NCBI GenBank assembly: GCA_036172245.1
Contig: JAYWIR010000020.1
Span: forward strand, 1,674,001 to 1,738,000
Source: Raillietiella orientalis
Lineage: Eukaryota
DNA length: 64,000 bases
Direction: 5' to 3'
Numbering within the stretch: the stretch's first letter is position 1; every line of letters begins with the position of its first letter. Shown piece after piece: positions 1 through 64,000 of this stretch. The notes beneath the pieces were generated by a model. It ran no database searches. It was not told the origin of the DNA and saw nothing but the letters and a program-made list of their open reading frames with translations. Both the position numbers and the translations under genes were made by a program.

Positions 1-3000
1 AACAGAAAGCTCCGAACCCCAGGAAACTGTAGAAAAAGTATAAGAGATAAATGAAGCCAAAGCACAGAGAAAACTAATAGTACCAGCTTGCTTACATTAT
101 TCGAGGAAATGCCTGCTGACATTGTGATCATCCTCAAATCGTGAAACCATGGAATTTCCATGAGCATTTCGTCGTAAAGAGAAACACAAAGCTGCATTGA
201 ATGGTTTCCCTTTTTCCAGTGAGGGAGGCCACTTCAAAAAAAAAAGCAACACTCCTTCGTCGACTGAAAAATGATGCTCCGTCATGCAGGAAGAGTACCA
301 GTTTTCAAAAGTTCTCTCTGGGCGATGTGACGAATAGTCACAATGGTAACAGACGAGACGAATGTTTAGAAACCTTTCGAAAAATGGTGCTCTTTTCCAC
401 AGGATGTATACCGTGCCTTTTTATAATTTCCTAAAGACAATAGGGGATGCATGCATTGGAACCTTCTCGAAAGCACGAGTTCAGGTCAGAACAGAACATG
501 GATATCGTCTCGCCGTGGATTATCTTAAATGGCATTATTGTCACTCGTGAAGCCTTCTTTTTTCCCTTTGTAGCCACTGTTCTTATTTTCTCCCCATTAC
601 GTTCACATGATTCATGCGTCATCATAGCCGTTCTCAACATCCAGCAACAGAAGCTTTTTGCAAGACAGAGATTTGTTTTGTGAGGAAGATTTGTCCAGTC
701 ACTTTTTTAAATAGCATTTCCTGAAGAACAGGCAAACTCATGCAAGTTTCAGCAAATTAGAAATCAGTTCCACAGGATTAAGAATTCCTCTCTGCTAAGT
801 ATACGGGAATCACTAAGGAAGCTGTCTGCTATTCACAAGCTAGAAGACCAGAATGCCAGGATTCTCCATCTCCCATGAGTCTCGAGCATTCCTTAAACTG
901 TATGGAAGATTTGCGAAGCTGCTTGGTCCTAGCATAGGAATTCCGAGAGCCATCGTGCTCCGGGTATCCACGAGCTGTCAAGTGGACGTGGGTGCGCAGC
1001 GAGACTGGTGCATGTATCGAAGAAAAATGATCCAGATCTTCGGACCGGATTTTGCCAGCAGCAGCTGGTGCGTGAGTGTGGTGAAAATGAGCCCCCTTTG
1101 CTGACCTCACTAGCTGGTCTGATGAAGCAACTTCAGGAATAAGCAGAAATGAATGGCACAGCTGCTTATACTAGTCCCCTGAGGATTCTCAGGTCATGGA
1201 AGAGAAAGCGATAAATCTGTCCCTGGCAACAGTGTAGTGCCCTCCAAAGGAATCTGATTTCATCTGCGGAAAATGCCGCCCGAATTCCATATTTATAAAT
1301 TTGCCCAAGAACTAGTGAGCTAAACAGCAGTACAGATGTTGAGAGAACATTCGATATGTACCAGACCTAATACAGTTTGAGTGTTTCCTTAATGGTATTT
1401 TTAGATCTAACTTGCTTTTCAAGAGAAAGGCAGATAGGATGCACATGGTAAGAATCACGAGTCTATGCCAATCCATTAGACACTCTTCCGAACGGATCCA
1501 GAGAAGAGCACTCGCACATCACATCGTTGGTTGTGGAGAACAGAATAAAGCAAAGCAAAAGTTTCGCTCTTGCAGATGAGGGCAATCCGATGCCTACAGC
1601 GGGCAACCAAATCTCTCACTTCGCATCGGTCAGATCCATCACAGATCGCAACATTGAATGTTGATCGGGGAAAAGTAGGGATATGACTTCAAAGCTTTCC
1701 AGACTTGCTTTTCCTGGAGAAGAGTGGCTGTGCTAATTGCCCTTCAGAATCTTTGGTCATAGTTGGTACCAGAAATGTTCTCTTAGCGGACTCCCATATT
1801 CCCTGAAACAGACAATAAACCCAACTGAGTAACCATGGATAAGAATCCAGCTGTGACTCTTATGAATGAGAATAGGAAACAACAGACCACGAACGATTCC
1901 ATTGAGCTACCAAGGAAACAGCAAGCATGAAAAAGCTATTTATTATTTCCCGAATGGACTCTATTGTTTCTGACCGTGGAGATGCTCTCTGTGCGGAACG
2001 GATTTTTTACTCTTACCAGAAGGAGCTGGAAAAATTGAAAATACAGCTGATTATACATTATTATATTTTAAGTTCTTGAATGTATCGTTTGTAAAATGCT
2101 GTTTTCTGTCTTCATGTGCTTAATACGATACAGACATTTATTCTCCTATCTTCGTGGTTTCAAATTATTATGGGTTTCTCCTTGTTGAGTATGTTCTCAT
2201 TCCATTCCCTTCGAATTGCTCCACGTTATGATAGATTGGTAAAGCTGGAACAGCAACTAATCCTTTCAGGTTACCAGGCTTCCACCGTCTGGTAACAAAA
2301 TAGCATAGCACTGAGAATTCTAAATTTGTTTCCTCTATCATTCCGAATATCCTTTTGCTGTGTAGAAATGGCAGAGCTGTAATCTTACAATAGCCACAAT
2401 GGTTTTGAGGAAGCATTTCTAGAGCTCGCTTCCTGTTTCGCTTCTACTGATGCATTCGTTGAACTGAGAACGGCAAATGCAATCTGATTAATAGCTCCAG
2501 ATATCAAATAAATGTCACGATAGATCCTGAATTTAAGTGGAAGTGGTTGTTAAAGTTAGGTTTTGCGGTATCAACCGTCTGATGATACCTCGCATCCTGT
2601 TCAAGTGTCATTGCATTTTTGTGCCGATGTTAGTCTTAAGATGATGATCATAAAGCCTTGGTAGCTTAGTTGAAATAATGTTGATAGCATTTATATTCAA
2701 AAGTGAGAGATCTAGAATTTTCGGTATACGATCACCAGTTATTACCACTTTGTATTGGGATTGTTTTCAGAATAACTGATGTTTAATGCTACCCCTTGAG
2801 AGAGCTTGCTATTTATAAAAATTATTAATTAATAATTCCCACTCATGTTTATGTATGGATCATTATCTGAGTAATGTGGATGTAATAACCTGTACAGCAG
2901 CCATGGAGTAATTCACTGTATGTTGAATATTAAGTTAGATATATGGATTTCGATTTGGTATCACCATGGTAGACAATTGAAACTGACGCTACGCAAGCGC

Positions 3001-3157
3001 TGTAATCAGGTGCGGATAGTTTCGGATATCGGGTGTAATGTATGTGAATTGTAGCGGCATTATGTGATAATCTTTTATGAGAACAGTCAGTTTACATTAG
3101 TTTTGAAATACTGATTAGGAAGGAATGACCTAAAAGTAGCAGGTTACTAAGTTTCTA

Positions 3158-3343
3158 ATGGGTTCGAATCAACGTTATAATCTTCGTTGGAATGACTTCC
3201 ATTCAACATTGGCATCATCGTTTAGTACATTGAGAAATGATTCCGATTTCATAGATGTGACTTTAGCTTGTGATGGACAGAGTTTTGCAGCACATAAAGT
3301 GGTTCTTTCAGCATGTAGTGTATATTTGAAAAAATTATTAAAG
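3158..3343 (+). CDS. BTB-ZF transcription factor (Abrupt-like/Tramtrack-group BTB), common coding exon 1
   Basis: MGSNQRYNLRWNDFHSTLASSFSTLRNDSDFIDVTLACDGQSFAAHKVVLSACSVYLKKLLK is a ttk-type BTB N-half; AAG|GTTAGA donor, phase 0. Confidence 0.95.
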
Positions 3344-4013
3344 GTTAGAATATTTTAGTGTTTACATTTAAATTCTTGAAGTTCTGCATAAAAAAAAGGC
3401 TGTTTTTAAATTGCAGAAATTATCGTGTTGTTTGTTTACAAATGCAGAAAAATATGAGCTCTAATTGGTAGTTTGCTTTTCCGAAAAAATGAATTAAAGT
3501 GTGATGCGTGTTACAATTTTTGATTGATTAGAAGGATACTGCCTGTTTACACTGAAGTAAATAAAAACTGAATGTGTAAATTTCATCACCTGAAATACCT
3601 AATTTGCATCATGAAAAGTAGAAGTTTGCATACTGGTTTCTAATCAGTATGTAAAGTGCATGAATGAATTCTAATTATTGTTAATGAGCTAAAGCTATTG
3701 TTAATGAGTACCCTTGAATGTTTAGATTGTTCCCTATAGGGCCTAGGTTGAACTCATATTGTTTCTAATAACTGTGACCAGCCCATTATAATTTAATCAA
3801 GTTAAATTCAAGAAGACTTTAAGGCAGTATTGGTTGCTAACTACTTTAATAATAGAAACCATTTCCATAATAATTGGAAATGGTTAGTTTGTTAAGTGTA
3901 GTCTCAACAGGAGCTACTCTTAACCTCTGGTGAAACTAGAGATGAACTCTGGCGAGAAAGCAAATAATTTTCAATGATTTTGTTTTTCACATCTGAATGT
4001 GATCATTTTTCAG

Positions 4014-4205: not shown

Positions 4206-7200
4206 GTAAGGTTACGAGTTCAAGATTGCTGAGATCTTTGTAGTATTAGGATTTCATCATAGTGCTCCAAAATTAAGACAAGCATGAAGACAGTCATTTG
4301 CCTTGTTATTGTTATTATTTATATTCATACACATAGGTAATCTAGAGTAAAAATCAAAGGTATTGTGTTTGCAGTAAAATGTATATTTTTTTTCCCTACC
4401 TGAACAGTTATTGAAGTTTTTTTTAAGCACCTACTCATTTATGTAGAGAAAATGTTCATCATTGTAAATGTTCATTCATTGTAAATGTAGTATTAAATAT
4501 GTAGATATTAAAATTTGAGTGTTTTTAAGAGAGCAATTTTACTAGTAACTTACACTGACAAACTTTTAAAAAAAATGCGTTGACAATTTTTGATTTTCTG
4601 CAGATACATTGAAAAACTTTGACATGGTTTCTGGGAGAATGAAAAGCTGCGTTTTAGAATTTTTGATTTCACTTAGTTTGGACATGCGGCCATGATTTTG
4701 GCCAGAAAAAACTTGAGAAATATAGAATTGTCAATTGTCTAACAGAATTAAAAGCATGCATAAGAGTTTCAGAGATCTTGGTTATTTAGACAGGTAAATA
4801 ATTTTGAGGAGTTTTCCAAATAATTGCACAGAAGGTGGTGACTTTTAATAATATATATGTTATACATGTTTATTTAAAAGTACAAATTTTTGTTTATAAC
4901 ATTATCTGTCAAAAAAGAGTGGTTTATGATGACACTGATGTGCCATGAAAAAGCATGACATAGATGTCTAAACACCTGTATTGTTCATGTTGTCATTCAT
5001 ACATGTCATTTTTTCTCATTCAATGTTTCCATGGTTTTATGGGAAAGTTATTTGATGGTCTCCTTTAAAACAAAAACAAAAAAAAATGCAGTGAAAGAAT
5101 TTTAGTTCCAAAGATATATGCAGTGGTAGTTTTCCTTGTACAAAAACGGCTTACAGCAAAGAATATAACGGTTTTATAAAGGAAGCATGGAAAACTCAAA
5201 AATTCAGGATGATTTGTTGATAAAGTTCCATGTTCAATAATTAGTAGAATCAGGAATGTAAAGAATTTTAACAGAATCAATTTAGAAAGCAGCTTATGCA
5301 GATAAATGTAGCAAATTATTTAAAAATGAAATCTGATACAGAGGATCAAATATGAGAATGCCAATCATCGTTTATCAAAGTGTTGCATTAATAAAAAATG
5401 ATGAAATCAGATTCATTAAATTTGTTGTATTAGTCATCATTCCAAGAATCTAGAAAATCAAAGTGCAGTTGGCTTGACAAGTTTAGCCACCAAGCAAAAG
5501 TGGATTCAGGTGCTTTTCATTGAACATTAGCATAAGAAGCAACTTGGCCATTAAAAATGAAAGGGAAATTTGCCATTTTTAGCTTTGATTATCAAGGTTT
5601 TATTCTCTTGGGATTTCTAGTTTCCAATTTTGAATTGGGCATTATACGTTCATTTGGATGTTTTGTTTTGTTTTCATTTCATCATTACCACATAATATCC
5701 AGATATGCTTGAGTTTGCAAACCTTCATTTACTTGGTGATCAAGCATTTTAAATTTATAGTACAGAAGTGTTGCATGCAAAATGCTTATAGTTTCTTGAG
5801 TGCACATCTTGCTGAAAAAATGAGTACTTTTTTGAAATTTTTTTGCCCATATGTGTGGGTACGTGTTGTTAAATACGTAAATTAAAGAAGCATGTTTTTC
5901 AAAGCTTTTGTGTTGTTACACAGTACAAGTCACCTTAGTTTTTATATTGGTTTTTCAGCTATGCTCTTGCTTTGTATCATGAAGCTTAAATCAGTGTTCA
6001 TTAAACATTTAATATGAGTCTTTTTCAATTCTTTTATGTTAATCTTTCAAATGTTCTTTCACAATTGAAATGCATGCAGAAATTGTTTGATTTTATCCTT
6101 AATATGGTATTTTTTGTATACAAGTAGCAGATCAAATAGTTTCATTTTTATATTGAGTCTTAATTTTCATTTCACTTTCCACATGTAAGGGTAGTAATAA
6201 TAATTAAATTTGTAGGGTTAAAAGGATTGGCAGTATGTAAAGAAACTGTACGATTTGTTTGAGTGTGTTATTAAATTCCTCCAAATTTACCATCATTACA
6301 TGTATCAGAATCTTTGGTTCACCTACAAATTTATAGAGCATTCATGATTTCTCCCCAGAATTGGTATGATGCAGGGGAGCGAATTAGAATTTTAGAGCAA
6401 AGAAGAAAGTATTACAAATATTAATAACCAGATACATCAGCTCCACTTTGTAAATTGGACACAGTCTGTTTAATATAGATGATTCTACACTTTATTAACA
6501 CTATAAGTGATAGTCAAAAATGGGAATATCGCACAGGCTGATCGGCAATGCTAAATTGAGGGATTGATCCCTATTTAGATTGAGTCACTTTTTGTAAATA
6601 ACTGTAAGTTTGAAGGTTAATTCTGTGAGCCACTAGAAAGAAATATAGGTGTTGAAGATGCATGATACAAGGAAGGTAGTAACTATTGAAAGGACTGCAA
6701 AACTTTAAGAATATTTAATAATTGCGTGATACCAATGTATTACCAATGTATTGTTCATTACTGAAAATTTGTTTTTGAGACTCTTTGTTCTTAGAAAGTA
6801 TTTTAAAGAAACATCTTCACTAGATGATCATATGTACAGTTCAAGGAAGCACAATACACTTATAAAACAAGAGTTCATGAGTATTCTCAACGAAATCAGC
6901 TTATGATTATTTCTTTGAGATTATGTTTTGGTAATTCATATTTAAAGTAAAAAATATTCATTTTCTTATTTCCATATAATGCAGACTAATTTTTAATGAG
7001 ATTTACACAATAGTGTATTGCATTATCCAAATCTTCTGATTGCAATATACGAGTATTACGCGAAAGGTTATTTAATAATTAATGAAAATGTAATTTTTGA
7101 AGTTTCAGGGATGAAAATTTTGTAACTATGTTTCGGAGATGAAAGTATATATTGAAAAGGGAATTTTAAACTGAACACAATAACATCGATGTTGCCAATA

Positions 7201-21700: not shown

Positions 21701-23149
21701 CGAAAGTGCCTCTGATGCAAAAGCACGACTGCATTTATATAACGCCTTTTTTCATTCTTCATTTTGCTTGCGCACCCTTAGAAAGGATCCGATGCTTCCC
21801 GTGCTTCTCAAGGAACCGGCGGTTCGTATTTCTTTCCCAGTGTTTCCACTGGCAAAACACACATTTCCCGTGTGCACTGCTGCTCTAACGTCGTGCTTTT
21901 CCAGTGGCACGTGATTACTCATAGAGAGAGGATGTCTCCTAAAATTCCATCCACGAGCTCTCTAAATATGAGATCGTATTTTTTTCCCCCCCTTTTTCTG
22001 AGACAGGTGCCAAGGAAGAGACCAAAGCACATATGGATTCTGCCGTTTTACAGTTTCACTTCACGAAAGGATGTAATCCTTGAATTGCAACTTATTGCTC
22101 CCCATTGTGAATGCTTAGTTTTCAGTTTGGCCCGTTTGATGTGGAATTTGCTTTTTTTTTTTTTTTTCTCCAATGAGCTGGACGTACTGCCATAGAAACG
22201 GATGCTTATGTGTTTACTTTAGGTATAAGAAGGTTCCGACCAGAGTTCAGATTTATTTCGTCAAAATAATTATTCATATAAGACTGGCTACTTTCGGACG
22301 CTTTCCTTTTCACATTCTTTCGAATTCCTTTATAATCTGCAATTTACTCTCAATTGTGAAGTGGTCTAAAGGGGAATGCAGCTTTTCAGGTGTTAACGTA
22401 CCTTTGGAAGCACGTTGATCGCTTTCATTTAGTGTTTGGGGGGGGGGGGAGGACATGTAAGTGTTTCCCCCTCCACTGAAACCATACAAGTTCCTTGTAC
22501 TCATTCCAGTGGCACAAGAACTGGGTGCAAAGAAGAGACATAAGACGATTCCCACTTAGCGCATCCGCATTTCTCTTTTCCGGAAACACATGTTCTGTTC
22601 ATGGGCACATTTTACATTTATGTGGCACGGGCCTACTGTGTTCAACATCGATGGAGATACAGAGGATATCTGTGTAAGATTTCTGCACTGGTCGAGGTTG
22701 CCAAATACAGACCGAAGTAAGGCAATCATTTACCTATCTGCTACTCATTTCCCGGCTTTAATCTGCAGATCTCTTCCTTTCGTGGTCAACGATGAGATTC
22801 CGATAGAAATATCCATTCTCATCCATTTGTTATTTGTTTTCACGAGGTCTTTGGTTCCGTTGAGGATACCGATAGTTTTGATCATCCTCTGCAACTTTTC
22901 TCCAGTGAGTTCGCTCATTTAATACGTCTGCTATTGTATTTATTTGAATTTTCGGAATGTTTCAAAGCTATGATTTTTGTACAGACCATGGGGTGAAGTC
23001 AACGTGAATGCTCCACAGGGAGCATTTCCTTCAAAATTGTACGAGGAAGGATCTTTCGAAAAGCAGGTCCGCATCCGTGTTAGAAAAATGCTGGATGCAA
23101 TTTCACGATCTCAATGGACCATCTTACACAATTCCGGAAATTTCAATAT

Positions 23150-23330
23150 ATTACCATTTATCGTTTATCCAAGTCATAGAATATTTCATGCTTGCATTTT
23201 CTGTCACCAACTCCATCTTTGGCTCCATATTCTTGAACGCTACAGGATTCCACGGCCTTCACGTAATAGCCAGAATCATTTGGTTTACTCTCTGCAAATT
23301 CTTACACTCTCTCTTACTCACATTCATGAT
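23150..23330 (+). pseudogene. COX3: NUMT: mitochondrial cytochrome c oxidase subunit III fragment
   Basis: SFIQVIEYFMLAFSVTNSIFGSIFLNATGFHGLHVI matches the COX3 signature EY...F.I.DS.YGS.FF.ATGFHGLHV. Confidence 0.85.
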
Positions 23331-23360: not shown

Positions 23361-25138
23361 CATGCCGACGATCTTCTGCTCCTGCTGCTTATGTCCGTTC
23401 CGAAATCCGCAGTCGAAAATCTTCTCGATCTGCTCGGTTGCGGGACCGGACTCCGGATTAACAGGGCGGAGTCGTCCGTGGTGGCAGTTGCAGCGGCATG
23501 GGCTGAACAGCCCGACTGGTTCCGCTTGAGAATCCCCACGGGCAGGTACTTGAAGTACCTTAGCGTTCCGTTGGTGGACTTCTGCGCGTCGGAAGCTTGG
23601 TCAGGTCGTCTACAGAAAGTGGAGTTGGCGATCGGCTCGTTCCTGGAGGGCAAGTTTTACTTGCCGGAACGGGCCGCGGTGTGGAACGCGTTCTCGGCTA
23701 CCATCCTCCACCCACTACTTTCTGTTTGCTCTGTCCCTAAGGATATTGAGAAGAGGACGAAGGACCTACTGCGCATCGCCCTGTGAGGCAACGGGAGGTC
23801 TCATGTGCCATTGTCGGACTTGTACGCTCTGCGTCCGAATGGCGGTCTCGACCTCCAGGAACAGATGGAAATTCAGCTGCGTTGCCGAACCCTGGCCATC
23901 GCGGTGAAGTATTGGAACACCCCTTGGTGTATCGCGGTCCGTCTCCTCGTCCGCGGTGTCTCCGGAACGGATGGACTTGCGTCTCATCTTCTGTGCCGCA
24001 GCCTGAAGAAAAGATGTGGCCTTCTTCTCGGGCGCATAGCCACCCTGGCGAAGGAGAACAGCTGGATGGTGTGCAGCCCCGCAAACTATAGCGCATAGCT
24101 ACAAGAAACAGTTGGCACTTGGGCGAATTTGAACCAACCGAGTGAAACGGAACTGCGTGCGATTGAGCAATCTCTCCCGCTGTTCGCTGCGGAAAGTCCT
24201 GGAATGTCTAGCCAGGAGCACCCAAGTGGAGATGACCCTCCCCGCTACGGTGTTGCGTTTCCTGAAGAGGGCGCTTGGCAGCAACCGAACGCCGAGGTGG
24301 CAGGTCTCCTGCCGGATAGCGGGCAAGGAGAAGCTGTTAAGCGGTTGGACCATGAGGGAACTGGCTGACGCCGCGACCCCCAGCGTCCTCTTGCGAGGAA
24401 TTCGGAGATGGGGCGAGCTGCTGGGCATCCCGCTGGATGACCTCATGTGGCTCCGGTATTTAGAGACACATCCACCCTCCCCCTCAAGTGGCAGGAATCG
24501 GCACTGCTGCTGTTGCACTGGGGTCTTCACTGCAACGCGCGCCGCCACCACTGGACGTTGGGGAAGGTGGGACAGAAGTGTGCAGTGTGCGGGGAGAAGG
24601 AATCCCTCCCCCACCTGTTAGTGGACTGCGCTGCCCTCCGGCCCTTGTGGGAACGTTTTGCTACGACCCTCCGGATGCCGGTCGGCAGTCCCCCCAGAGA
24701 CATTGTGCGAATCCTCTTCGTGCGAGACGCCCTGCAACCAGCCTCGGCCCTGGCAGCGCTCTGCTGCTTCCGAGGGATCGTGGCTGCGTAGAGCACAGCC
24801 AACAGAGGAAGTAGCGATAGGGACCCGATTGTACACGCGGGTCGCGAATCGCGATCCATCTGGGAGCTATGCAGAGGGACCTCTAGGGCATCCTGGAAAA
24901 GATGATCTCTTCCTCCAGCGGGCAGTGATCCCTTCCTGACCCAACAAAGTGTTTATTTTTTTTTTTTTTTCCTTTATTTTTCTTTTTGTTTTTTTCCCCA
25001 TCCCCCTCCGCTGCCGAAGAGCGTCGAGCCGGTCTGCGTACCGGCTTCCCGGCAGGCCTTATGAACTATTGGCCGTAGCGGGGCCTAGTACCGCAAATAT
25101 ACTATGTTTAGAAATAAACGCCCCGGCGTGACCGGGTC
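23361..25138 (+). mobile_element. Tx1/L1-type LINE, 5'-truncated and degraded (RT C-half, C-terminal CCHC, 3' UTR)
   Basis: HADDLLLLL, RYLKYL, GGL motif, CAVCGEKESLPHLLVDC; T-rich tract, 3' hairpins and AATAAA. Confidence 0.88.
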
Positions 25139-26599: not shown

Positions 26600-29500
26600 T
26601 TACATTTTCTCATGCTGAACCCTAAGACTCCACGTCACAACCATTTGCTGGTTGCCGGTGCAAACACCGGCGAGGTCCATCCACTGCTCGGGGGTAGGGA
26701 TACAATAAATAAAAAGAAACAAAAAGTGCAACATAGGGAGGGGAGAAATCTCTAGGGATGGAGAGGGCGGGGAAGGGATCACATTGCGCGCGGATCGATC
26801 CTCTAGATCCTGTTCAGGGTCCTAACAAACTGCGTCCTGTTTGCACCCAGGTGGAGCCACCTGGATACGTTCCTTACAGAGATGCGCGTCCAGTGAATGG
26901 CATCCCTGCCATTCTGTCCTCTTCTGGATGTGTTGCCACAATGCCGCGAATGCAGCACAGCACTGCTGCAGATGCGGCCGGGGGCAAGGCGGCACGCGAG
27001 AAGAAGCGCCTGAAAATGTCCCTGGGGGAGCCTCCGTCAATGTTCAGGATTGTCGCAATACGATTCTAAAGGGGACGGAGGACGATACAGCCGACGAGAA
27101 GGTGGGGGGAATGTCTCTTTCTCCCCGCACCGGTCACAAAAGGCATCCACACTGCCACGTGTCCAGTGAGTGAGTAGTGCTTTGCATGGGAGTCCCCAAT
27201 GCAAGACGAGCAACGTCACCTCCTGCCACTTCATGGGGAGGGAGCCACTGTTCCAACACGCTCGGGGCCACTTCACCTCCTCCGGAGGTAATGCGAATAG
27301 CTCGCCCCAACGTAAAAGTCCGTTGGGCGGGACATTCGGGGTCGCAGCGTCCGCTAGCTGCCGAGATGTCCACGCCATGATCAGTTGGGTCCTGCCGTCA
27401 ATGACGCAGGACACTTTCCACTTTCTCTGCTCGTTGATGTCCCTAGCGTTCAACAGGAAGGGCAGCACTGGGGCAAGGGGGGTAATCTAGGCCCACAGCA
27501 GTTTGTCGTGGGATTGCACGATCTCCTGCAGTGTCCAGCGAGCGTGCCTTCGCAGGCAAGTGTTCTTAGTTCCGCTCGGGACGTGGATCTTTTCCCACGT
27601 GGAGACTGACTCTCGCAACCATACGGAGCAGTTCCGGGGGAGGCAGGAGATCCAGGCGTTCTCCCGAACCACAATGGCCACGTGACGCAGCTGAGGGCCG
27701 CAGTGCCTCAGCCTGCAGTCGAGCGTCACTAGAAACGACGAGAATCCGCCGAATCCGGAGGCTCGTTGGGCCAAGAGGTGTGCTGGAACGCACCAGGGCG
27801 TATCCCACAATTCCGCCGCAAGGGCGAGAGTCCACAATCGGAGCTGCAGCTCCATGCGGTCCAACGCAAGGAGGCCAAGTCCACCATCCCTACGTGGAGT
27901 GCACAAGTCTTTCAAACGCACGCGGACCTCCCTTTGCCTCACAGGGCTGTCCTTAGGAGTCCACTGCTTGCTTTCTTATGAATTGAGGGGCGGGGCAAAC
28001 AAAAAGCAAGGGGCGGAGGAGGGGTGCCACAAACGCATTCCACACCGCGGTCTGCTCCTGCAAGTAAAAATTGCCTTCATGGAACGGGCCGATCGCCAAC
28101 GATGCCTTTTGGAGACGGTCGGACCAAGTTTCTGCTACACAGAAGTCCCCCAACGGAACGCCGAGGTACTTGAAGCACCTGCCCGTGGGGATCCCCAAGT
28201 GGATCCATTCCGGCCGTCCAGCCCACACCGAGCCGACAGGAACGATGCACGACTTCGCCCTGTTCATCTTCAGTCTCGTCCCGCGGCGTAGCAACTCGAA
28301 GAAATCTTCGAGCGCAGACGCCGGGGTGGACCCGGGGAGCAGCAGCAGAAGATCGTATGCATAGGCCGACACGGCAGGCGTGCCAGGGCACGAGCTCGGC
28401 AAGGCAGCCAAAGTCTCCCTGTACGCTCTCAGCACCAACTCGAAGTAGATGCTGAAGAGCAAGGGGCTCATGCTGTCTCCCTGCCTGATGCCGCGGCGAA
28501 CGGGCACGCCGTACACGTGCCGCCGGCCTCTGAAACAAATGTCGATGGACGCGAAGCGCCAGCAGGGGCGCAGTTAGGACACGGTCAGGAAACACATGCG
28601 GTCCAGGAGCTGCAGCAGGAGTTCCTGGTCGAGGCAGCCGAATGCTTTACGCAAATCGACCGCGACCGCAAGAGCTCCCGTGGATTCCACCCATCCTTGA
28701 ACCCATTCCATCCCATGTCCATGGTCGACAGCACGCGTTCAATTTTTACGCGACATTCTTTTATGATTCCTCGTGGCGAGGATTTTCCTTTGCCTTTCGC
28801 GGATTTTTCCAGAGTGTTCGTTTTTTAATTTTTTTTTTTATTACAGCTGCTTGCCTTCCTCGTCGACAGTCTGTTTCGGAATCTCTTTCTCCGATTCCTT
28901 TTTCTGGTGCACGACTTTTTTTTTAGTTGGAAGTTGGTTTTTTGTTTCTTTTTAATTCCTTTTTTCTGCCTTCTTCCGCTTTTCTTCTGCGGGGGTTTCC
29001 GGCGTTCAGCGCCGACCTTAGGGCACACCACAGTCGTGTGGCCCTTTTCGCCGCATGTAGGGCATAATGCGTCCGGACATCTCCTTTTAAGATGGTCGAA
29101 CGTCTTGCAGAGCCCGCAAAACTTGGGTTTCCACACATACCACACATCGACATTTTCACTGCCGATCGGCAGTTTCTGAGGAAGCTCAGATTCTTCGTGC
29201 ATGGTGACGCGTGCCGCCAGAAGCCCACTGAAAGCTCCCTTGAATCCCAAAAGCATTGGGCTTGCTCCACATCGCGTGAACACGGAGTTTTTCGAGTTCA
29301 GTGCGGAGGGCATCTTTGGCCATCCGCACTGTCGTCCCGGTCAAATGGATCACTATGGTGCGATCCACCGTATAGGGCAAGAGATTGAGGCCCTCGAACA
29401 CAACGGGTTTACAGAGCAGTCTGTGAGTGAGGCCTGCATCTCTGCAGACTAGCTCTGCGAACTGTTCCCCGCTCAGGATAGAGAGGCCCACAGTATCTTC

Positions 29501-33203: not shown

Positions 33204-34061
33204 CTAGGCCAATAGTAACGATCTCCTCATGATGTGGGGAGGTTGAAAATACTTGATTGATCCTCGGTATTTTGAGTCAAATATAATACCATTTTTCAAG
33301 GACTCGATAAATCCGTGTTGGACACGTTCCTGGTTGTCCCTTGTGAAGTCTACAACGATGATTCTCTCGCCGTTGTAGATGTGATGCCGTTGCATCAGCC
33401 TTCTTGCAGCTGTGCATGTATATGGCATTTTTTTTTTGAGATATAAGAATTTAGCCATGGTCTTCTCCGCGTTTCCGACGGGGTCGTAGGACCAGTAGAT
33501 TTTTCTGTCGTTGGGATCGTGACGTATGATGTCTAGGATCTTTAATTGCCATTGCTTCCATTGCAAATTGGCAAGTGGGTTGGGATGAGTCCTGCTTCTG
33601 GACAAATGAAAGCATTCTATGGTATTTAAGTATAATCTGTTCGTCTGCGCCGTTTTCAATAAGTTGTGGTATCTGGGAAGAGATGACCTTGATACTAGTA
33701 GTGGCAACCCTGTGCTCACCTGTTCCTCGTAAGTTTTTGGTTCGGCGTCTTCGTTGAGTGCACCGAAAGTCCAGGTGTTTTTGTCCTCCTTCGTACAGTA
33801 CCGTAAGTTGCTCTGCGGACTGCCCTTGGCTTTCTCGAGGTGACTCTTGTGAAAGGGTTTGCGGTGCAAACCAGGCATGGTCCTTGGTTCCCGTAGCTGA
33901 ATGTATCCTTGTAGGTGAGGAGTTTCGGTTTCTCTGCCAAAGCAGGCAAGGTGGCGGTTGCATCTGCACCACTGCTTGATACTTTGGAAGTCCTCTTCGG
34001 GGTCTGATTGCAAAGTGTGACTCACCAGTTGAAAAATAGTCCGTAAGGCATGATTCGTCAT
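33204..34061 (-). pseudogene. rep: endogenous CRESS-DNA virus replication initiator (HUH endonuclease plus SF3 helicase), disrupted
   Basis: motif II TPHLQGY, HLEKAKGS, motif III YCTKE, WKQWQ, Walker A region DPVGNAEKT, Walker B IIVVDFTR, ESLKNGIIFDSKY...PPHI; motif I NW*VTLCN lies in an alternative frame from ATG 34051. Confidence 0.93.
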
Positions 34062-34137
34062 GTTTAGAAATTCACCGCAGGTATCACTGTGGTTCGGACT
34101 GTTTAGGGGGTTTATATACTTCGTAACTACGCAGTTA

Positions 34138-34169
34138 GCGCAACCTGGTCAGTATTACCCAGATTGCGC
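34138..34169 (+). promoter_or_regulatory. CRESS rolling-circle origin stem-loop with nonanucleotide CAGTATTAC
   Basis: GCGCAACCTGG (34138-34148), loop TCAGTATTAC, CCAGATTGCGC (34159-34169), 10/11 paired; nonamer 34150-34158; flanking CGCAGTTA repeats; minus-strand TATATAAA at 34111-34118 upstream of rep. Confidence 0.92.
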
Positions 34170-34387
34170 GCAGTTATCTATCCGACCCCGTGGGAAATTG
34201 TTATGTAAGCATATTTATTTTTAATGTCTGGCTTTTGTCCGCGCACGTGGAAGGCTTGGATACGCGGAAAAGCGATTTGCTTTCGAGGTGTGCGTGGCTG
34301 GTGGAACCCAGCCCCGTGAAAGGCTAGGACAGTCGGGTGGGCGGAGCCAGCCGGCTGGAGTACGAAAGGGAGGGGGGAGGGGAAAAA

Positions 34388-35283
34388 ATGGCAGTAGGCT
34401 GTCAACCAGCCGAACGGTGATGTTGCGTTCGTTATCGTCTCGAAAGCGTAAGCGCGTAGGAAGTGGTTAAAGTGACAGATTGCGGTCAGGCGATGGTACA
34501 TGCAAGAGGCGTCGTCGCCGTGTTCGAATCATTCGAAATCCTCGGTGGAGATGCTTTGCGTGTAGTAGAGCGAAAGGGTGCAGCCGGAGCGACGCATCAT
34601 GCGTCTCAGAGAACGGTTGATTCGGATCCTGTAAATCGTTCGTGGATGTTTATGTACAGGGAGGAGGCGGAAACGCTGTGGGATCTTTTAAGAAGGTCGC
34701 ATTTGGAACAGCTCGCGAGATATTATCGCCATGTAAAGTTGCAAGGCGTGGCAACCTTTGAGTCTCGGACTGACTATAGGAAACATGGCTGAAGAATTCG
34801 GGATGAAGGTTTCGTACCGGAACGCGCTGCTGTTCCAAAGTGCCGCTCAGAGCGAGCATTTTGGGAGAACGGATGGTTATGCGTATACGAACTTATGGCG
34901 GCCCACGAAGGGACATCGGGTTGTTGGTGCAAGTACTTTGGTGGTTTGCGGTGGTACGCAAGGGCGTATACGATAAAGAAAGAAGTGGTCGGAACAGCAG
35001 ATGTGGAGAAATACGCAAAGTGTGGTTGGGTCGATAGTGGAGAAGGCGTGAGTTTGGATTACGAAACTCGGATGCAAACAAGATGTGGTCGTTCCCATTT
35101 GATGAAGCATATGTCAGGTGTGGATATACCACACAATTTGAAAGAAGGTTGTTCACGCGGTGTGCGCCCAAAATCAGGAAAGTTGACATCTGGATATCCT
35201 ATCTACAGAATAACGCCCAAATATTATGTAGTATTTAAACACCTGAGAGATGCTGGATTGTACAGTTAAAGAAATGCAATAAA
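34388..35283 (+). pseudogene. putative CRESS capsid gene, frameshifted
   Basis: divergent from rep across the origin; basic N-terminal SSRKRKR; overlapping ORF pieces 34463-34792, 34758-34976, 34895-35269; C-terminal YRITPKYYVVFK; AATAAA 35278. Confidence 0.65.
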
Positions 35284-37779
35284 TACAAAAGCGATGAAAC
35301 CTTATTGAAATGAAACTTGTGAAAGGGGCGACAAAGTACTAAGGGAGGAGTCAGGCGAGTCAGGGGCTTGTTCTGGTCTAGGGCTTGAAGAACAAGCCCA
35401 TGGGGGAATGGCTCCATCTTCATTAACTTGCTATTTGGTTTTTTTAAAAACAAAGAAAAAAAAACAAAAATGAGATTTAGATGAAAGATGAGATTATAGC
35501 ACGACAGCACTTTACATGGCGCCTGCATGCCGATCTCCTTTTCTAAAAGGAAACACTCATGTAATGGGATCAGCATCTATACGACGTAAATCTTCAATCG
35601 GATAATTCACAGCACCGCTAGCCGTAAATTCTTCCTTCAAATCACTACTCCTACGTTCTAAAATCACCGTCCTTCTCCACCGACTTTCAAGTGGAAGCAC
35701 AAACAAGAATTCCCACCATCAGATATTTCCAGTTTCCGCGTCCAGGAATCAGACATTAGCTTCCCACATCTGAGAAGGTGGCCTGGTGAAAAGTCCAGCA
35801 ATACATCAATCAGTATTAGGAAACAAAATGTCATGCAACCCGTAGCAGCATTCCGGGATGCCCCATGATTCGAACGGAAGGCTCCATCAAACTTCCGATT
35901 CAACCAAATTACGGCCTGTCATGTAAAAGTTGACCTGGATTCTGATAACAGATTCACATCCTTTCCGCAGCTGTTCCCCATGGTCCTAGTTTTGCTTCAA
36001 CCACGTTTTTCCACTCCTGCACTTTCTCAGTACAGCCAGCGGGCAGCCCACAAGAAGCCAATTCAGTCTATGACCTGCACAAAAATCCAGCCCAGGTTTC
36101 ATGTGCTCCACGATTTCCTCTTCGTCCTTCCCTTCTTTAGACACTCCATAAGAAAACACTTCCCATTCCACACTGCACCACCGGCACATATCTTTTTTTC
36201 CCTTTTCCACTGCAGTTCCTACCCATCCTCACAATTCTGTCCTTCACATCGGTCATCACCTTGTTATGAACAGCAGTTACCGTTCCGCTCTTCACGTGCA
36301 CCTGGAAACAAGCACTTCTCACGAAAACCCTTAATCCTTTTTGTAGCACTACAAAGACAAGCCCTATTTTTTTTTTTTTTTTTTCGCACTTCCCATTACC
36401 GCCAGCAATCGTGGAAAACACTGAAATTCGCAGCACTATCATGTCTACCGTATGAGCGTCATCAATTCATTCATTGGAATGACAATTTGCTCATCCCACT
36501 CCCACACGGCAGCAATGACTTCCATCCGTCTGTGGCATTCAGTTCCAATTTCGTGAACATCCACGAGTACCGTGATATTTATCTTTCGAGAATCTCTCCG
36601 ATGTACATTCTTCCCAGAGCTGTGTGCCAGCATTTTCATTTGTACGCGGCGAATACGCTGTGGCTGTCGGGAAGAAGTGTGCTTATTGAGAAGTTCCACC
36701 GGAGAGGAGTCGAAGAAGAGACCTTGGGACTCACGTACGAGGAAGCCAAGTACCCGTCATGCTTCACGAATTGCACGTACCTTCGCTTCAGAATGTACGC
36801 CCTTCTGCGCGGTCATGCGAGAATCTGCAACTCTTCACTCTCGAGGGCATCAGAAACGCATGCCTCGCATCTCCGTGTGCTCTTGTGCTGCATCATCAGT
36901 CGGCCTTCTCGTTCATTATTCCCCCCATGCATCACCGCCACAGTCGTTCTATCTCTATAGCATTCGCTTCCCTTCCGCATCGTCCTTCCCTTTTTCTCGT
37001 ACCTCCTCCATGCCTTCCCCTTCCCTACCGGGGATGCACACCAGTTTCCTGCATTCCTCCTTCTCCTTCGGTTCCCGCTGCTCCCTATGTCTTCCTTTTT
37101 TGTTCCTCCTTGCCGTTTTTGCCTTCTTCACCCCCTCGATGTTCTTCGCCTTCTTTTCTGCTCTCGACCAAGCTGTTAGCCTCGAGTCCATTCCCACTCT
37201 CTATTTTGCTTTGTGCTCCATATTCTTATACTTCTACCCCCACTTCCACCCCACTCCTACCCTCCCCTCTAATCAATACTTTGTGCTGTTTAAGCATTTC
37301 TCTCATTCGAATTGTCCTTTGCGCGGTCTGTCATCTTTTTCGTCATTGCGCCAGTGTCACACGAGGCCTTCCCTTCCTTCTCCTCGCCTTGCCTTCTTTC
37401 TCCTCCTCCTTCCTGTTCCTGCTGCTTTCTGTCTGTGCATGCATCCGAAACGAATTCGTATAGGCAGGTGGGAACAAATGTTGGCACCTTCTACGTCAGT
37501 CCGTCAGCACGAAAGCACCGACGAGAACTCGAATTTGTCCAACGCGTGCACGCTGAACGGAGAATTCCCATCACACCGAAACAAACCAAGGACGGCAGCT
37601 GCAGCCATGGGAAAAGCACAGTTCTACTGCATACGACAGTTGGAGAATTTGTTGCTCAGCCCTACGAAATCCTACTGGAATTGCACTGCTTGAAACCGAG
37701 AGGATCAGTCATGCCTTGGTATCTTATTCCATACGCTTTGACTCGAATGTCCAGAGAAAGCAGGAGATTGGATGACAGA

Positions 37780-50149: not shown

Positions 50150-52640
50150 GACGCTAGCACTCCTGGTTGTATTCAGAGGTGCCTACGGAACGCAGTCTCT
50201 CCGAGCTGCTTTTCCCCAAGGATACCCCTGTTGTCGACGAATAGGAAGGCGCACGTTTCGACGAGCCCTTCACGGCGGAGGAAATCTCTTCCGCAATCGC
50301 GGGACTCAAGAGACGGTAGGCGCCAGGAGAGGATAGCTTGTCCACGGAGTTTTTCCAGTGCTTTGCGGTGGAGCTCATCCCCCTCGTGCTGAGTCTCTCC
50401 GCTGATGCGAAACACGGGCAATGTCTCCGCCTTGTTCCACTCAGCGAGGGTGCGTCTTGCGCCACCTCAACAACTGGCGTCCGATCACATTAGTGAATTC
50501 GGACGTCAAGTTGTTTTCGAAACTTTGGGTCGCGCGGCTGGGAAGGATCGCGGAGTCTGTGGTAAGTCCGGAGCAGTCGTACGCTGTTCCCAGAAGGTCC
50601 ATGGACGAGAACCTCCTTTTCGCGAGGACATGGCTGCAATTACAGTATCGCGTGGCGCTGGATGGTCGAACAACAGCGAGAGCTGCTAACGATCACAGGA
50701 GTAAAGGCAATCCACAGGAAGAAACGCCGGGAGTTTTCGCGGTCGCAGCCGACTTGCACAAGGCATTCGACTGCGTCAATCAGGACCTCCCTCTGTGGCT
50801 CTTGGAACGTGGCAAAGCTGCTTATTTACCTGAACTCCTGCTGGCGCCACACGATTACCAGCATCTTTTTCAGCGGCTGTCGCATTTACAGCGTGTCTGT
50901 GAGGAGGAGCATCCGGACGGGAGACAGTTAAAGCCTTCTGCTTTCCAGCATCTTCTTTGAGATGGTGCCGAAGGTTTATAGGCTGACGCTGGCCTTCCTT
51001 CCAAGCTCCTGTCCAGGCATCTCGGCCGTGGCAGCCTACGCAGATGACCTTCCCTGTTGCCCATGCCCACTCCGGCGGCCTCACTCGAAGATTTCTTTGA
51101 GCTGATCCGTCGCGGAGTGGGAGTGAGAGTCAACAGGAGCAAATGCATGGTCGTCCCGGTGGGAGCGTCGAGGGAAGGGCAGTCAGACTGGATCCGTCTG
51201 GGGATCCCTACGGGCAGGTACCTCAAGTACCTCAGAGTGCCATTGGGTGACTTCTCCGCTGCAGAACCGTGGTCGGACTGCTTTCAGAAAACAGAGAGTG
51301 CTCTTGGCCCGTTCCTCGGTGGCAAGTTCATCTTGTCGAAACGGGCAGCCATATGGAACAGCTTCGTTGTCTTCTTCGTATGCCCCTTGTTTTTTGTTTG
51401 CCCACCCTCCCAGGCAATCAAGATCGTGCGCAGCGTCTCCTACGCAAAGCGTTGTGGGGAGTTGCAAGGTCCCGGATCAGATTAAAACATCTGGTGACGC
51501 CGCGACAGGATGCCGGTTGACGATAAACAAAATCAAACTGCAGGTGCAGTTTCGATTTCTGGCACTATGTGCCTAACTCTGGTGTATGGTGCCTTCCTGT
51601 GCACCTTATTCTTCGGCGATGCACTGGCAGAGGACTATTTTCGTTTCTGCCTCACTTTCCGCACACCAGAAAAAGATTTGGCTTCCCGCTGAGGCAGCTG
51701 TCCTCGCTAATGGAAGCTCAACGTTGGATCTCCTGTCGCTCTTTGAGCATTAATGCGTGGCGCTAGGAGTCGATTGCGTCATGGACTGCTTCGGAAAGGA
51801 TGCGCTCGGAAGATCTTCGAGCCTGCGACTCCTCTTGAGTCATCCTCTGGAAGACATCATGCTCGGCAAGAAGAAATGGGATTGTCCGCCACACCACTTG
51901 CCGCAGCGCTGTCTGCTCTCAGAGCAAACAACGACAGTAGCCTACCGACTAGGTGGGAAGTCTCCTTCAGCATCTCAGGGGAGACGAAACTCCTTAGCAA
52001 CTGGCGGACGAAGGAGCTGGTGCATGCCACCACTCCTTCCAATCGGGCGAAGGGACTTCTCCGGTGTAGCGAACTCTTAAGTGTGCTCCCCGAAGACATA
52101 GTGGTCCTCTCTGCTTGTTTGGACAGCTCCGTGTTCCACTTGAGATTGCAACAAGATGTGCTCTGTTTTTACACTGGGGTTCCCACTGTAATCAGCGACG
52201 CAACATCGTTTCCGGAGGAGCTTTCTCTCCGAACCGCTCTAGGTGTGGGACGATCGAGTCGTTCCTGCGCCTCTTGCTTGAATGCGGTGACCTCAGAGAA
52301 CTGTGGCTGAGATTGGTTTCAGCCGTTTCGCTACAGGAAGACACTGAGATGGACCTGCTGCAGCGTTTCTTCATGCGAAGCGGACTTCCGGTTGGCGTGA
52401 TAGTCTCTACGATCTGTTGCATTCGCGTCATCGTCAATGCCCATTACTTCTTGGAAACGAGAGCGCAGAGAAAGAAGGTCCACTGTGAGACAGCCACCTA
52501 AATGGGAACAGCTGCAAGGTGGCACCACCTGGAAGAACAAGCGAGAGAGGAGATCGATGGCATTGATCTCCAGATGGACTTTTAAGAACGGCTGACCCCG
52601 GTGAACCTTGCCACCTCCCAACCTCCATTCATTAATTTAT
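50150..52640 (+). mobile_element. Tx1-type LINE ORF2 fragment (RT through C-terminal finger)
   Basis: NWRPITLVNSDVKLFSK, ADLHKAFDCV, AYADD, RYLKYL, RCGTIESF.RLLLEC. Confidence 0.88.
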
Positions 52641-60231: not shown

Positions 60232-63200
60232 GGGGTGTCATCGAATTCACACACGACAACGCAAACGATGTCTTACGCAGCAGCAACGGCGGGCACTAAT
60301 GCCCAACAAAACCGTGTTTTTGGTGAGCCAGAATCTGGAAAAATCGAAAATAAGGATGAACCGGTCATACGGACAAGTCCGGACGTGAGGCCTGTCAAGT
60401 TTAAAACTGGACTTATCCGTGTAAATAACATAAAAGAGGTCTACTTAGCCCTATTTAAGGCGAACGTAGATTTTGATCGAGTGCAGGCGATCATACCAAG
60501 TACAATAGGGTTCACTATTTATACGGATAGTGAAACCTTAATTGAAGAGTTAATTGAAAAGGGGATTAATATCCAAGTACGGTGGGTGCGAGGCATTGGC
60601 GAGATGCCGCACACCACAGTGTTCCTAGGTGGCGTTTGCATAACTAGTAATAAGCAAGCCATCTGGAGTTTTGTATCCAAATATGGCGAAGTCCTGGACG
60701 TAGAGTTACTTTGGAAAAGTGTTCTCAGGAAATATAAGGGCAAAAATAAAGTTGTTGGAGGGAGTGCAGATTCCAGGGTTGGCGCATATCGATGCCGACT
60801 CCCAGGATGTCTACGTTCGCTACAGGCAACAGCCCATTTTCTGCACAGGGTGCAAGTACTTTGGCCATAGGTCAGTACTTGTCCACGGTCTAGATGTTTC
60901 CGTTGTGGAAAGATTGGACATCAGGTTAGGTCGTGACAGATGCCGGAGGTGTGCGCCTTTTGCAAGGCTCCAGGCCACGCGAAGTGGAACTGCCCGGAGT
61001 TTGCAAATTGGCGAACTATGCGGGGTTTTTCCCCCGTGAGGGAAAGGGTCGAGAAACCGACCGAAGAGCCAAAAAAGGTAGTCGCAGAGATGGCGAGGAA
61101 GAGGGGCGTAGTCCCGAGTATGTCTTAGGACGGTTTTCTGGAAGTAAGGAGGAAAGGGAAAAAGGGGATACCCCCGAGGGTACAGGAAGTTCCCAAGGAG
61201 ACGGAAGAAGTAAAGGAAATAGTAGAGGAAAGCGAGATGGCGGAAAAAGAGGATAATGATAGTGTAGAGATAGAGAGTGTTACGGTAACGGAGGAAACTC
61301 TGCAGGTTACTGAAGACTCGGAAAAGTTAGCAGAAGATTCCAGCAAGGAAAAATCGAAGAAAAGAAAGAGCAGGAACGATTGCTCCGACGATTCTGCGGA
61401 GTCCAGGACGACATCAACAGGACGGTGGAGGTAACCCATCGTGAGAAGCTGGAGAACAAGCTTCTCAAAGTGAAGGCAGAGTACTGCGCAAGAGTGAGCC
61501 TGAAGAAGCTTCCAGCCAGTGCCAGTGAGAAGTCGGAACAAGGGACAGAGACCACCGACCTCACTGGCACAGAAAGTGATGCAGGAAGCGAAAAGCCTGC
61601 GGCTTCCGGGAGGAAGAAGATTTCTCCTCGGTAGATAAAGACCAGAAGAATAAAACAATAAAACTACCCACTTTGTGGCCTCGTTCTTATCAACCAGCAG
61701 GAGAATCAACATTACCTCCTGGAATATTAATGGATTGTTGGATCAAGGAAAAAGAAAAAGGATTGTGCGAAACATTGCCAAACAAGACATTATATGTTTG
61801 CAAGAAACCCATCAGATGGGACAGCAAATCACCCTTGAATTAGAACGACTTTTGAAAGGACAAATATTTGTTAGTGAAAGACAGAAGAAAACCATGGGTA
61901 TAGCGATTTTCATTTCAAACGAACTCGCCCACACCATTTTGGAAACCTTCGGCCCAATTTCGGGGCGAATTATCGTAGTAAGGCTAGCCTGGTCCGCTAA
62001 CGTTTATCTGTTTTTGGTGAACGTATACGGACCACACAAATTAAAACATCGGTGCGCGGAAACCTTGCACGAAGCACTCCGCAAACGAGCCGTAACAAAG
62101 GATATCATCATTATCACGGGAGATTTGAACATCTTGAATGAGATCACTCACTCCCAGGACACTAGAGGAAGAAGGGCATATCAGCGGTTGTCCGATGACT
62201 TCGGACTTCAGTGGCGAACAGCTAGCCACAAACCGATCGACCATATCTTGTATAGCTCGGAAATTGAAAACCGTACACAGGGTTTTCGGGACATGCAAAC
62301 TTTGCTGTCCGATCACCCGGTACGGTTCTCTCTTCGAAAAGAAACCCTCGGAGGAGCAAAGAAACTAGGGCGGCGCTCATATGCATGCCCACGTGGTTCG
62401 AAACGCTTCCCTGTCACCAGGAAGTCATCGAGGCGATTCTGCGAGATGCAATTGTCCGCAGAGTCGCCGACTGGGACAGACTGAAGCATAGAGTCCATCT
62501 ATTTTGTAATATGCAATTTGGCGATAAGAGGTTGAGGCAAGAAGCGTACCGATAGCTAAACACCCAAGACCGCTCACTCTCAAGGTACTATGAACAGTAT
62601 GAGAGTCTATATGTTTTCGAAATACAAAAGGGGAAGTGGGTGTCTTAGAAAAGAAAAACCTAGCAACAGATATCTTCTGTATACAATATGTATACAGTTA
62701 TAGTCGAAATACAACGGAAGACATCGTGGATGCCTTTGAAAGGCATTACACGGAACACTTCCGACGACAACACCTGAGCCAAGCAAGTGAAAATATTTTC
62801 TTGAAATACCTTGGAAAAAAGACGGATGACCTCCAATCGAAGAGACTGGAGGAGGACTTCACCGAATACGAGGTGAAAGCTGCGTTTCAAGAATTACGCA
62901 AGGACGTGGCAGCAGGCCCTGATAGTGTTCCCATCACGCACTACCAGCGGTACCTGCATGCCTACCTGAGTTTATTCCACCAGCTGACCCTCTCCATCCG
63001 AGAAGAAGGACAACTACCAGGATCCTTCTTCGAGAGTCGGATGAGATTGCTGCCGAAAGGAGGCGACCTAACACAGGTCGCTCAATAAAGGCCAATCTCT
63101 GTCCTGAACTCCTATGCCAAGTGGTTGGTGAAGATTTGGGCCAAGCTCTTAGGCAAGGTCACGCCAAATCTCATCTCTCCGGTCCAGACATGTGCGGTGC

Positions 63201-64000
63201 CCGTGCCCGGACGCCACATGTCGGACAATGTCAAGTGTGCCCAGGCCATCGTGGGACTAAGTCGACATGTCGACGAGAACCTGATGCTGGTGTTCACCGA
63301 CATGGAGAAAGCTTTTGATACCATCGACCATGGGATGCTGCTGAAGATTCTGGAAAAGCTGGGCCTTCCGGAATACTTCGGCAACTTCGTGAGGATGATA
63401 CTCCAGAAACAGTACTTCCGAATTAAGATTCATGGAGAAGAGACGGCAGCCATCCGGATGGAACGGCGAGTCCGCCAGGGCGACTCGCTAAGTCCAATGC
63501 TGTTCGTCATCTACATGGAGGCGCCATCTTCCTTCATCAACAAAAGTGGACGTCTCCAAGGAATCACTATCGATGATCAGAAGCTCACCCATCTGGCATA
63601 CGCGGACGATCTCCTCTTCTTTATTAAAGGAGAGCAGAATCAGCTAGCGTTCCTGGATGTGGTGGAGCTGTTGGAAGAGGGAATGGGCTTGAAGATCAAC
63701 GCCCATAAAAGTCAAATTTTGCCCGTGGGAATCCTGGATCTCTCTGCTCTCACCGGGAGAGGATTCTGAACGGTGGATAACGCCAAGTACCTAGGAGTCC
63801 ACATCGGTGACGAGTCGGCGTCGAAACTACTGTGGACACAAATCCTAGGAAAAACGGCGAACGAAGCTGCAAAATACACTAGATTGGACTTTGGTATGAA
63901 GAGAAAGGCGAACCTTTGGAATAGAATACTCCTTCCCAAGGTACTCTTTGGACCGGCCTTCGCCAGAACGAACAAGGATACCATAAGGGAAGTTGAAAAA
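60232..64000 (+). mobile_element. Tx1/L1-clade non-LTR retrotransposon, 5' part present, ORFs disrupted, continues past the window
   Basis: ORF1 from ATG 60268 (MSYAAA; CTGCKYFGH, CFRCG..GH, CAFCKAPGHAKWNC knuckles); ORF2 APE ITSWNINGL, CLQETH, GDLN, IDHIL, SDH; RT DMEKAFD, VRQGDSLSP, YADD, KYLG; several stops and frameshifts. Confidence 0.93.

Follow-up and report, generated by a model that had tools for sequence, protein, structure and literature searches.

We analysed a 64,000-nt stretch of the genome of Raillietiella orientalis (NCBI GenBank assembly GCA_036172245.1, contig JAYWIR010000020.1, positions 1,674,001 to 1,738,000 of the forward strand), called the window below; all positions are counted from its first letter. 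Positions 33204-35283 contain a rep pseudogene on the minus strand, an origin-like stem-loop flanked by short repeats, a TATA box facing rep, and a broken plus-strand gene followed by a poly(A) signal (Table 1). We read this region as a near-unit-length, single-copy endogenous element derived from a virus with a circular Rep-encoding single-stranded DNA genome (CRESS-DNA virus), now decayed and consisting of the rep pseudogene, the origin and a probable coat gene. We estimate the probability of this reading as about 0.78.

A first-pass annotation, made from the sequence alone, had proposed a near-complete CRESS-DNA virus-derived element of about 2.1 kb, a typical size for such genomes, with its replication origin and a minus-strand rep. 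The features described were a plus-strand stem-loop carrying a nonamer on the strand opposite rep, iteron-like repeats on both sides, a TATA box facing rep, and a divergent, frameshifted open reading frame (ORF) with a basic N-terminus, a YYVVFK end and AATAAA. All these sequence features were recovered in place, and the total length agrees. The identity of the ORF as a capsid gene is a separate matter and is considered below.

Table 1. Positions of the features of the element in the window
Feature	Position	Strand	Details
rep pseudogene	33204..34061	-	ATG 34061-34059 to TAG 33206-33204; 285 codons open; HUH nuclease and superfamily 3 (SF3) helicase; C-end missing
Alternate-frame stretch between Walker A and Walker B	33383..33434	-	about 17 codons; fits profile positions 207-223; implies a pair of frame changes
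Walker A, altered (GNAEKT)	33459..33476	-	glycine before lysine replaced; G-x-x-G-K-[TS] in 12 of 13 aligned homologs
Motif III (YCTK) with catalytic Tyr, intact	33789..33800	-	invariant Y117 and K120
HUH motif II (HLQ in TPHLQGY), intact	33909..33917	-	invariant columns H78, L79 and Q80 of the 14-row alignment
TATA box	34111..34119	-	TTTATATAC on the plus strand at 34111-34119; TATATAAA on the rep strand (34118-34111); 50 nt upstream of the rep ATG
Iteron-like CGCAGTTA, copy 1	34130..34137	+	abuts the 5' arm of the stem
Origin stem-loop	34138..34169	+	11-bp stem with one mismatch; ten-base loop TCAGTATTAC; nonamer CAGTATTAC at 34150-34158
Iteron-like CGCAGTTA, copy 2	34169..34176	+	overlaps the final base of the 3' arm
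Arg/Lys-rich frame, putative capsid N-terminal arm	34420..34620	+	ATG 34420; TAA at 34468-34470; ends at TGA 34618-34620
Putative capsid gene, body frame	34460..35269	+	269 codons; one in-frame TGA at 34790-34792; TAA at 35267-35269
AATAAA poly(A) signal	35278..35283	+	begins 9 nt past the stop of the plus-strand frame

The rep gene

The minus strand is free of stops over 314 codons (33204-34148). No open frame as long as rep was obtained in 5000 first-order Markov simulations of the region. The rep frame matches the Pfam family Viral_Rep (PF02407; E 1.8e-8, 34.9 bits with a cut-off of 26) and, at E<=1, eight solved chains of Rep nucleases or Reps (best E 1.4e-5). In a collection of 5.8 billion protein clusters, 19 of the 245 candidates sharing words with the frame were homologous at E<=1e-3 (best 4.4e-21, identity 24-37%). 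All 19 are encoded on contigs of 1,052-2,870 nt, which is the size of CRESS-DNA virus genomes. A profile of 13 homologs, made without the window's own sequence, matches the frame with 160.1 bits (E 1.2e-50) over profile positions 19-275 of 312. Two motifs by which a CRESS Rep is recognised, HUH motif II (HLQ) and motif III (YxxK), occupy the invariant columns, as TPHLQGY and YCTKE. When the window Rep is aligned with the 13 homologs, Walker B (IIVVDF) and the IESLKNGIIF block are seen to be conserved as well. The Rep identity is thus directly demonstrated.

Despite the open frame, rep is a pseudogene. Motif I, which is CFTLNN in the homologs, reads IFQLVSHTLQS in the window; MAFFT places five surplus residues here, and the motif is non-canonical however it is read. 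From Walker A to Walker B the alignment of the main frame is poor. When positions 33434-33383 are read in the alternate frame, with X at both breaks, the profile score rises from 162.7 to 175.1 bits (+12.4). Since 238 break pairs were compared and this one scored highest, selection accounts for part of the gain. The upstream break lies within a T10/A10 homopolymer (33431-33440). Alignment to the profile breaks off at PPHIM (position 275 of 312), and Rep lacks its last ~35 residues together with the conserved SN (motif C) and DRW columns. The missing C-end was not found in any frame of either flank. An intact SF3 helicase is therefore not present, with GNAEKT in place of Walker A and no motif C, but the domain is still recognisably helicase-derived. 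Because of the Walker A change, the frame changes and the lost C-end, the helicase is non-functional as it stands. These breaks, like those of the plus-strand gene, are observed directly.

The replication origin

The origin hairpin lies 77 nt beyond the rep ATG. Its arms (34138-34148 and 34159-34169, 11 nt each) are 91% complementary, and its folding energy is -11 kcal/mol (z -2.77), with equal stability in three of 200 shuffles. This is the arrangement that marks a CRESS genome: an origin hairpin with a NAGTATTAC-type nonamer in the loop, near the 5' end of rep. The octamer AGTATTAC is found three times on both strands of the 64 kb, with 0.97 expected. Since it is expected about once per window, its presence exactly in the loop is not due to chance. 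The repeat CGCAGTTA also occurs three times in the 64 kb (1.12 expected), and two of these copies are the ones at the feet of the stem. The anatomy of the origin can likewise be seen directly. A search against Rfam gave no match.

Two further AGTATTAC octamers, at 6408-6415 and 7052-7059 of the plus strand, are 644 bp apart in an AT-rich block. They are probably chance occurrences or part of a repeat.

A survey of hairpins covered the 71 contigs of at most 3.6 kb among the 77 retrieved contigs of related viruses. A nonamer hairpin of this kind is present in 62 of the 71, and none was found in nine. The nonamer is opposite the rep strand, as in the window, in 39 of the 62, and on the rep strand in 23.

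The plus-strand gene

The Arg/Lys-rich frame across the origin from rep starts with MLRSLSSRKRKRVGSG, which is followed by TAA and then by ...CKRRRRRVRIIRNPRWR.... Arginine and lysine account for 19 of 45 residues. Of 122,728 background windows of 45 residues, taken from all six frames of the 64 kb, 131 reach this content (top 0.1%); in putative coat proteins of the relatives, the median is 16 and the range is 4-24. The body frame terminates with ...YYVVFKHLRDAGLYS and TAA. A frame of 269 codons with a single stop was reached in one of 5000 simulations, and its open part of 158 codons in 42 of 5000. The gene is damaged: the basic arm and the body are in different frames, which requires at least one frame change within 34460-34620, and there are two in-frame stops.

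This gene is probably a capsid gene. The assignment agrees with the simulation results for the frames, with the basic N-terminal arm, with the position of the gene beyond the origin in divergent orientation, with the poly(A) signal and with an element length of one unit; it is retained for these reasons despite the negative searches described below.

The element as a whole

The span 33204-35283 is 2080 bp long. Relatives have a median size of 2152 bp and a range of 1891-3458 (77 fetched loci of at most 3.6 kb, out of 83). Within this one unit, rep, the origin hairpin with its flanking repeats and the probable second gene are kept in their original order. The window contains one copy of rep. 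Sequence of the flanks at 30-38 kb recurs nowhere else in the window, and no terminal redundancy of the insert was found.

A nested hairpin is found at 35347-35415 on the plus strand, starting 64 nt past the AATAAA (-15.6 kcal/mol with DNA parameters, core arms about 35364-35399). It could be viral 3' intergenic sequence or host DNA, and thus the right end of the insert can be placed only approximately.

In the living virus, the strand corresponding to the plus strand of the window would have been the packaged one, following established CRESS biology. The TATA box at 34111-34119 would direct transcription of rep on the complementary strand. The Rep protein would recognise the CGCAGTTA repeats, and its YCTKE tyrosine would cut the nonamer in the loop of the hairpin. 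Its SF3 helicase would then drive rolling-circle replication. The divergent plus-strand gene with the arginine-rich arm would encode the coat protein.

As expected of an endogenous element, the viral DNA is contiguous with host DNA on both sides, at the level of the assembly, and carries disabling changes. We infer that the replicative form, as double-stranded DNA, suffered a break opposite the origin, and that illegitimate recombination or end-joining then linked it to host DNA. Breakage at this point is suggested by the intact and central origin, by the ends lying where the genes converge, and by the cut-off 3' end of rep. Insertion through nicking by Rep at the origin nonamer would be an alternative route, and it is disfavoured. 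The element presumably has no function at present.

A stop would arise from roughly 5.5% of the possible point changes in rep. Since 285 codons are nevertheless open, the neutral divergence accumulated after insertion seems to be only a few percent, unless selection has acted.

Points against and alternative explanations

Several results weigh against the reading of this region as an endogenous, near-whole virus genome with a coat gene. The first group concerns the capsid, whose identification is drawn from context: position, length, the basic N-end and the poly(A) signal. A Pfam search with five plus- and minus-strand frames at E<=1 produced a sole match, Tymo_coat with E 0.31, below the cut-off of that family. 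The read-through frames with X at the stops had no capsid match at E<=10, Circo_capsid included. In a word-index search with the 269-residue read-through, none of 1012 candidates reached E<=0.1. When 153 non-rep ORFs from the 77 relatives were compared with the window by tblastn, the best match in the region (E 0.001) was to an ORF which itself resembles Rep. Hidden Markov models of nine clusters of the relatives' putative coat proteins ranked the window frames 48th or lower among 327 test frames, and hhalign against these proteins gave probabilities of at most 1.3%, equal to those of reversed and shuffled controls. Two look-ups in language-model protein atlases yielded no usable capsid match. 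The first-pass annotation had suggested structure prediction as a way to find a jelly-roll fold; the single-sequence AlphaFold model was unusable, being too poor for a fold search (predicted local distance difference test score, pLDDT, 31.0; predicted template modelling score, pTM, 0.24).

An exhaustive phmmer search with 34793-35269, the C-terminal 158 residues, returned four matches at E<=1e-3, and all of them were rejected as spurious. The matched proteins have 1029-2256 residues, and each was aligned in four to seven short stretches. The three that were inspected (P0020, P0021 and P0023) are visibly repetitive, and the best, P0020, was matched through a repeated ...DMYAKCG... unit.

One possibility is that the insert comprises rep and the origin only, stopping shortly past the latter, so that 34420-35269 is host DNA or belongs to another mobile element. 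The uniformly negative capsid tests favour this explanation. So does the observation, in PMC6069186, that the newly found circovirus-related elements of animal genomes are all derived from rep and none from cap. On the other hand, a one-stop frame of this length is improbable by chance. Its place, direction, length and arginine-rich start, as well as the AATAAA, are as expected of a CRESS coat gene, and the whole element is as long as one genome unit. If the frames came from the host or a transposon, some relative would more likely have turned up among the proteins searched. Coat genes of divergent invertebrate CRESS lineages may have no sequence homology with known ones, as suggested in PMC6069186. 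We therefore consider an insert of rep and origin unlikely. The first-pass annotation had itself stated that the element should be reduced to rep and origin if the ORF showed no capsid similarity. Similarity was indeed absent in all tests, and the reduction was not adopted because such homology may be lacking and because the context fits. The length, position, basic N-end and AATAAA speak for the capsid claim; every sequence, profile, language-model and fold test was blank.

The second group of points concerns integration and age. The frame change associated with the homopolymer may be an assembly error, as far as that break is concerned. Integration is deduced from the decay and from contiguity in the assembly. 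An open rep of 285 codons is unexpected in an old fossil and could mean a very young insert or retained constraint.

In the latter case, the rep frame would have been kept open by host use, as a domesticated HUH nuclease without helicase activity. Besides the long open frame, which arose in none of the simulations, this would explain why the two frame changes cancel out within about 50 nt, why motifs II and III are intact and why the TATA box is kept. However, motif I departs from the canonical form, Walker A is changed, and Rep has lost its C-end along with motif C. A young insert accounts for the open frame equally well. Judging from the sequence, domestication is highly unlikely.

Finally, it is extremely improbable that an episomal virus was misjoined to host DNA in the assembly. 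Sequencing samples are often contaminated by small circular viruses, but a virus that replicates would not carry such defects as a truncated Rep lacking motif C, a changed Walker A motif and a second gene with in-frame stops. Both flanks continue without gaps in a window containing no N. The gene decay thus favours integration over an episomal contaminant.

Genomic surroundings

The window has the appearance of repeat-rich eukaryotic nuclear DNA, with a long interspersed nuclear element (LINE)-like endonuclease and reverse transcriptase, reverse transcriptase fragments and a COX3-like piece. The LINE-like retroelement, at 61654-63769 on the plus strand, comprises two consecutive ORFs, the first for an endonuclease (Exo_endo_phos, E 8.4e-18) and the second for a reverse transcriptase (RVT_1, E 4.7e-27). 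The best named relatives of its reverse transcriptase are from two plants (36% and 31%) and a wasp (30%), a mixture that is ambiguous as to the host taxon. Decayed retroelement pieces are found at 27956-28573 (minus strand; RVT_1, E 6.4e-8), 50406-50960 (plus strand; RVT_1, E 2.5e-5, below the cut-off) and 24441-24788 (plus strand; zf-RVT, E 6.4e-4). Around the insert, at 18-46 kb, three of the 133 ORFs of at least 90 aa have a Pfam match; this part is repeat debris with no recognisable host genes.

The COX3-like stretch occupies about 23149-23301 on the plus strand, within a GC-rich block. Its approximately 51 residues match PF00510 (E 2.9e-9) at profile positions 167-217 of 258, and it may be a small insert of mitochondrial DNA; its length does not suffice for a taxonomic placement. 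Two overlapping stop-free plus-strand frames of 363 and 378 codons at 35869-37693 have no Pfam match. They are pyrimidine-rich (GC skew -0.28 and -0.20) and probably compositional rather than coding.

The GC content forms a mosaic, with blocks of 28-36% (2-14, 16-18 and 56-60 kb) adjoining blocks of 54-59% (24-30 and 40-52 kb). The observed to expected ratio of CpG is 0.86 overall, at most a faint indication of the host taxon, and it is 0.60 in the first 18 kb and 0.87-1.07 in the middle of the window. Neither telomere-type repeats nor tRNA genes were found in the window.

Comparison with known systems

The best Rep identity is 32% over 219 columns. A FastTree tree of 90 rows was built from the best Rep ORF of at least 230 aa of 70 of the 77 loci, 19 database proteins and the window Rep as it stands. 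In this tree the end branch of the window is 1.67 substitutions per column long, versus a median of 0.4; its position has a support of 35, with no supported sister group. Scans with the single Rep protein gave one distant locus from 49 pattern matches in metagenomes and five distant loci in viral contigs, and nothing closer in either. On these comparisons the source lineage is unclassified or unsampled, without a close sampled relative, in agreement with the first-pass annotation, which had assigned the element to a probably unclassified virus.

The family profile matches solved nuclease domains strongly (best 100.8 bits). Against the full-length solved Rep 7lar (314 residues), only profile positions 6-158 are matched, that is, the nuclease and the linker and not the helicase. 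The matched solved chains are presumably circovirus Reps. The domain PF00910 was found in six of the 14 aligned sequences. The Rep of this lineage appears to combine a circovirus-like nuclease with a different SF3 helicase. A joint reading would go further and assume an unsampled CRESS lineage with a circovirus-like nuclease, a non-circovirus helicase and possibly a coat family of its own, the host perhaps using the nuclease half. All of this together is unlikely.

Most CRESS-DNA viruses are known from metagenomes only, without a host. There are few direct proofs that a virus lineage once multiplied in the germ line of a particular organism, and an integrated copy is one of them. The present element shows how the complete genome of an otherwise unsampled lineage was laid out, with a second gene beyond the reach of similarity screens. 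Its value is moderate, as a record of host association and as the only trace of the second gene of the lineage. As a near-whole viral fossil, it is a good example of an already known kind of element.

The layout had been called cyclovirus-like, and as regards layout this is correct: members of the genus Cyclovirus also have ambisense two-gene genomes of approximately 2 kb, in which the coat gene shares its strand with the nonamer and rep is complementary. Among solved structures, the window nuclease is nearest to chains labelled Rep or ATP-dependent helicase Rep. Relatedness does not follow. Membership in Circoviridae or Cyclovirus implies homology in both domains of Rep and in Cap, whereas the helicase half of the window Rep is not matched to 7lar and there is no Circo_capsid match. 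Moreover, unlike Cyclovirus, the window has Walker A and Walker B of the YDPVGNxGKT and VVFDFxR types, which are common to unnamed metagenomic relatives.

These relatives, circular metagenome contigs of approximately 2 kb (L001-L077; Reps P0001-P0019), share with the window the architecture and motifs of Rep, the type of hairpin and nonamer, and the genome size. However, the Rep identity is 22-38% in the best tblastn segment, and their putative coat proteins are not matched to the window. More generally, PMC6186406 describes eight layouts of CRESS genomes that do not track phylogeny.

The closest analogs are the endogenous CRESS/circovirus-like elements of invertebrates (CVe, CEV), which can also be used as records of host association. 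According to PMC6069186 and PMC6186406, these are likewise Rep-derived inserts from divergent unclassified lineages; many of the invertebrate circovirus-related elements come from uncharacterised CRESS lineages (PMC6069186), and a tapeworm element with rep and a partial capsid gene has been described (PMC6186406). A near-unit-length CRESS insert with an origin was not seen in the titles and abstract openings returned by a full-text search, which was not systematic and does not prove that none is in print. Compared with the new elements of PMC6069186, the element in R. orientalis unites rep, a probable second gene and an entire origin hairpin flanked by its repeats.

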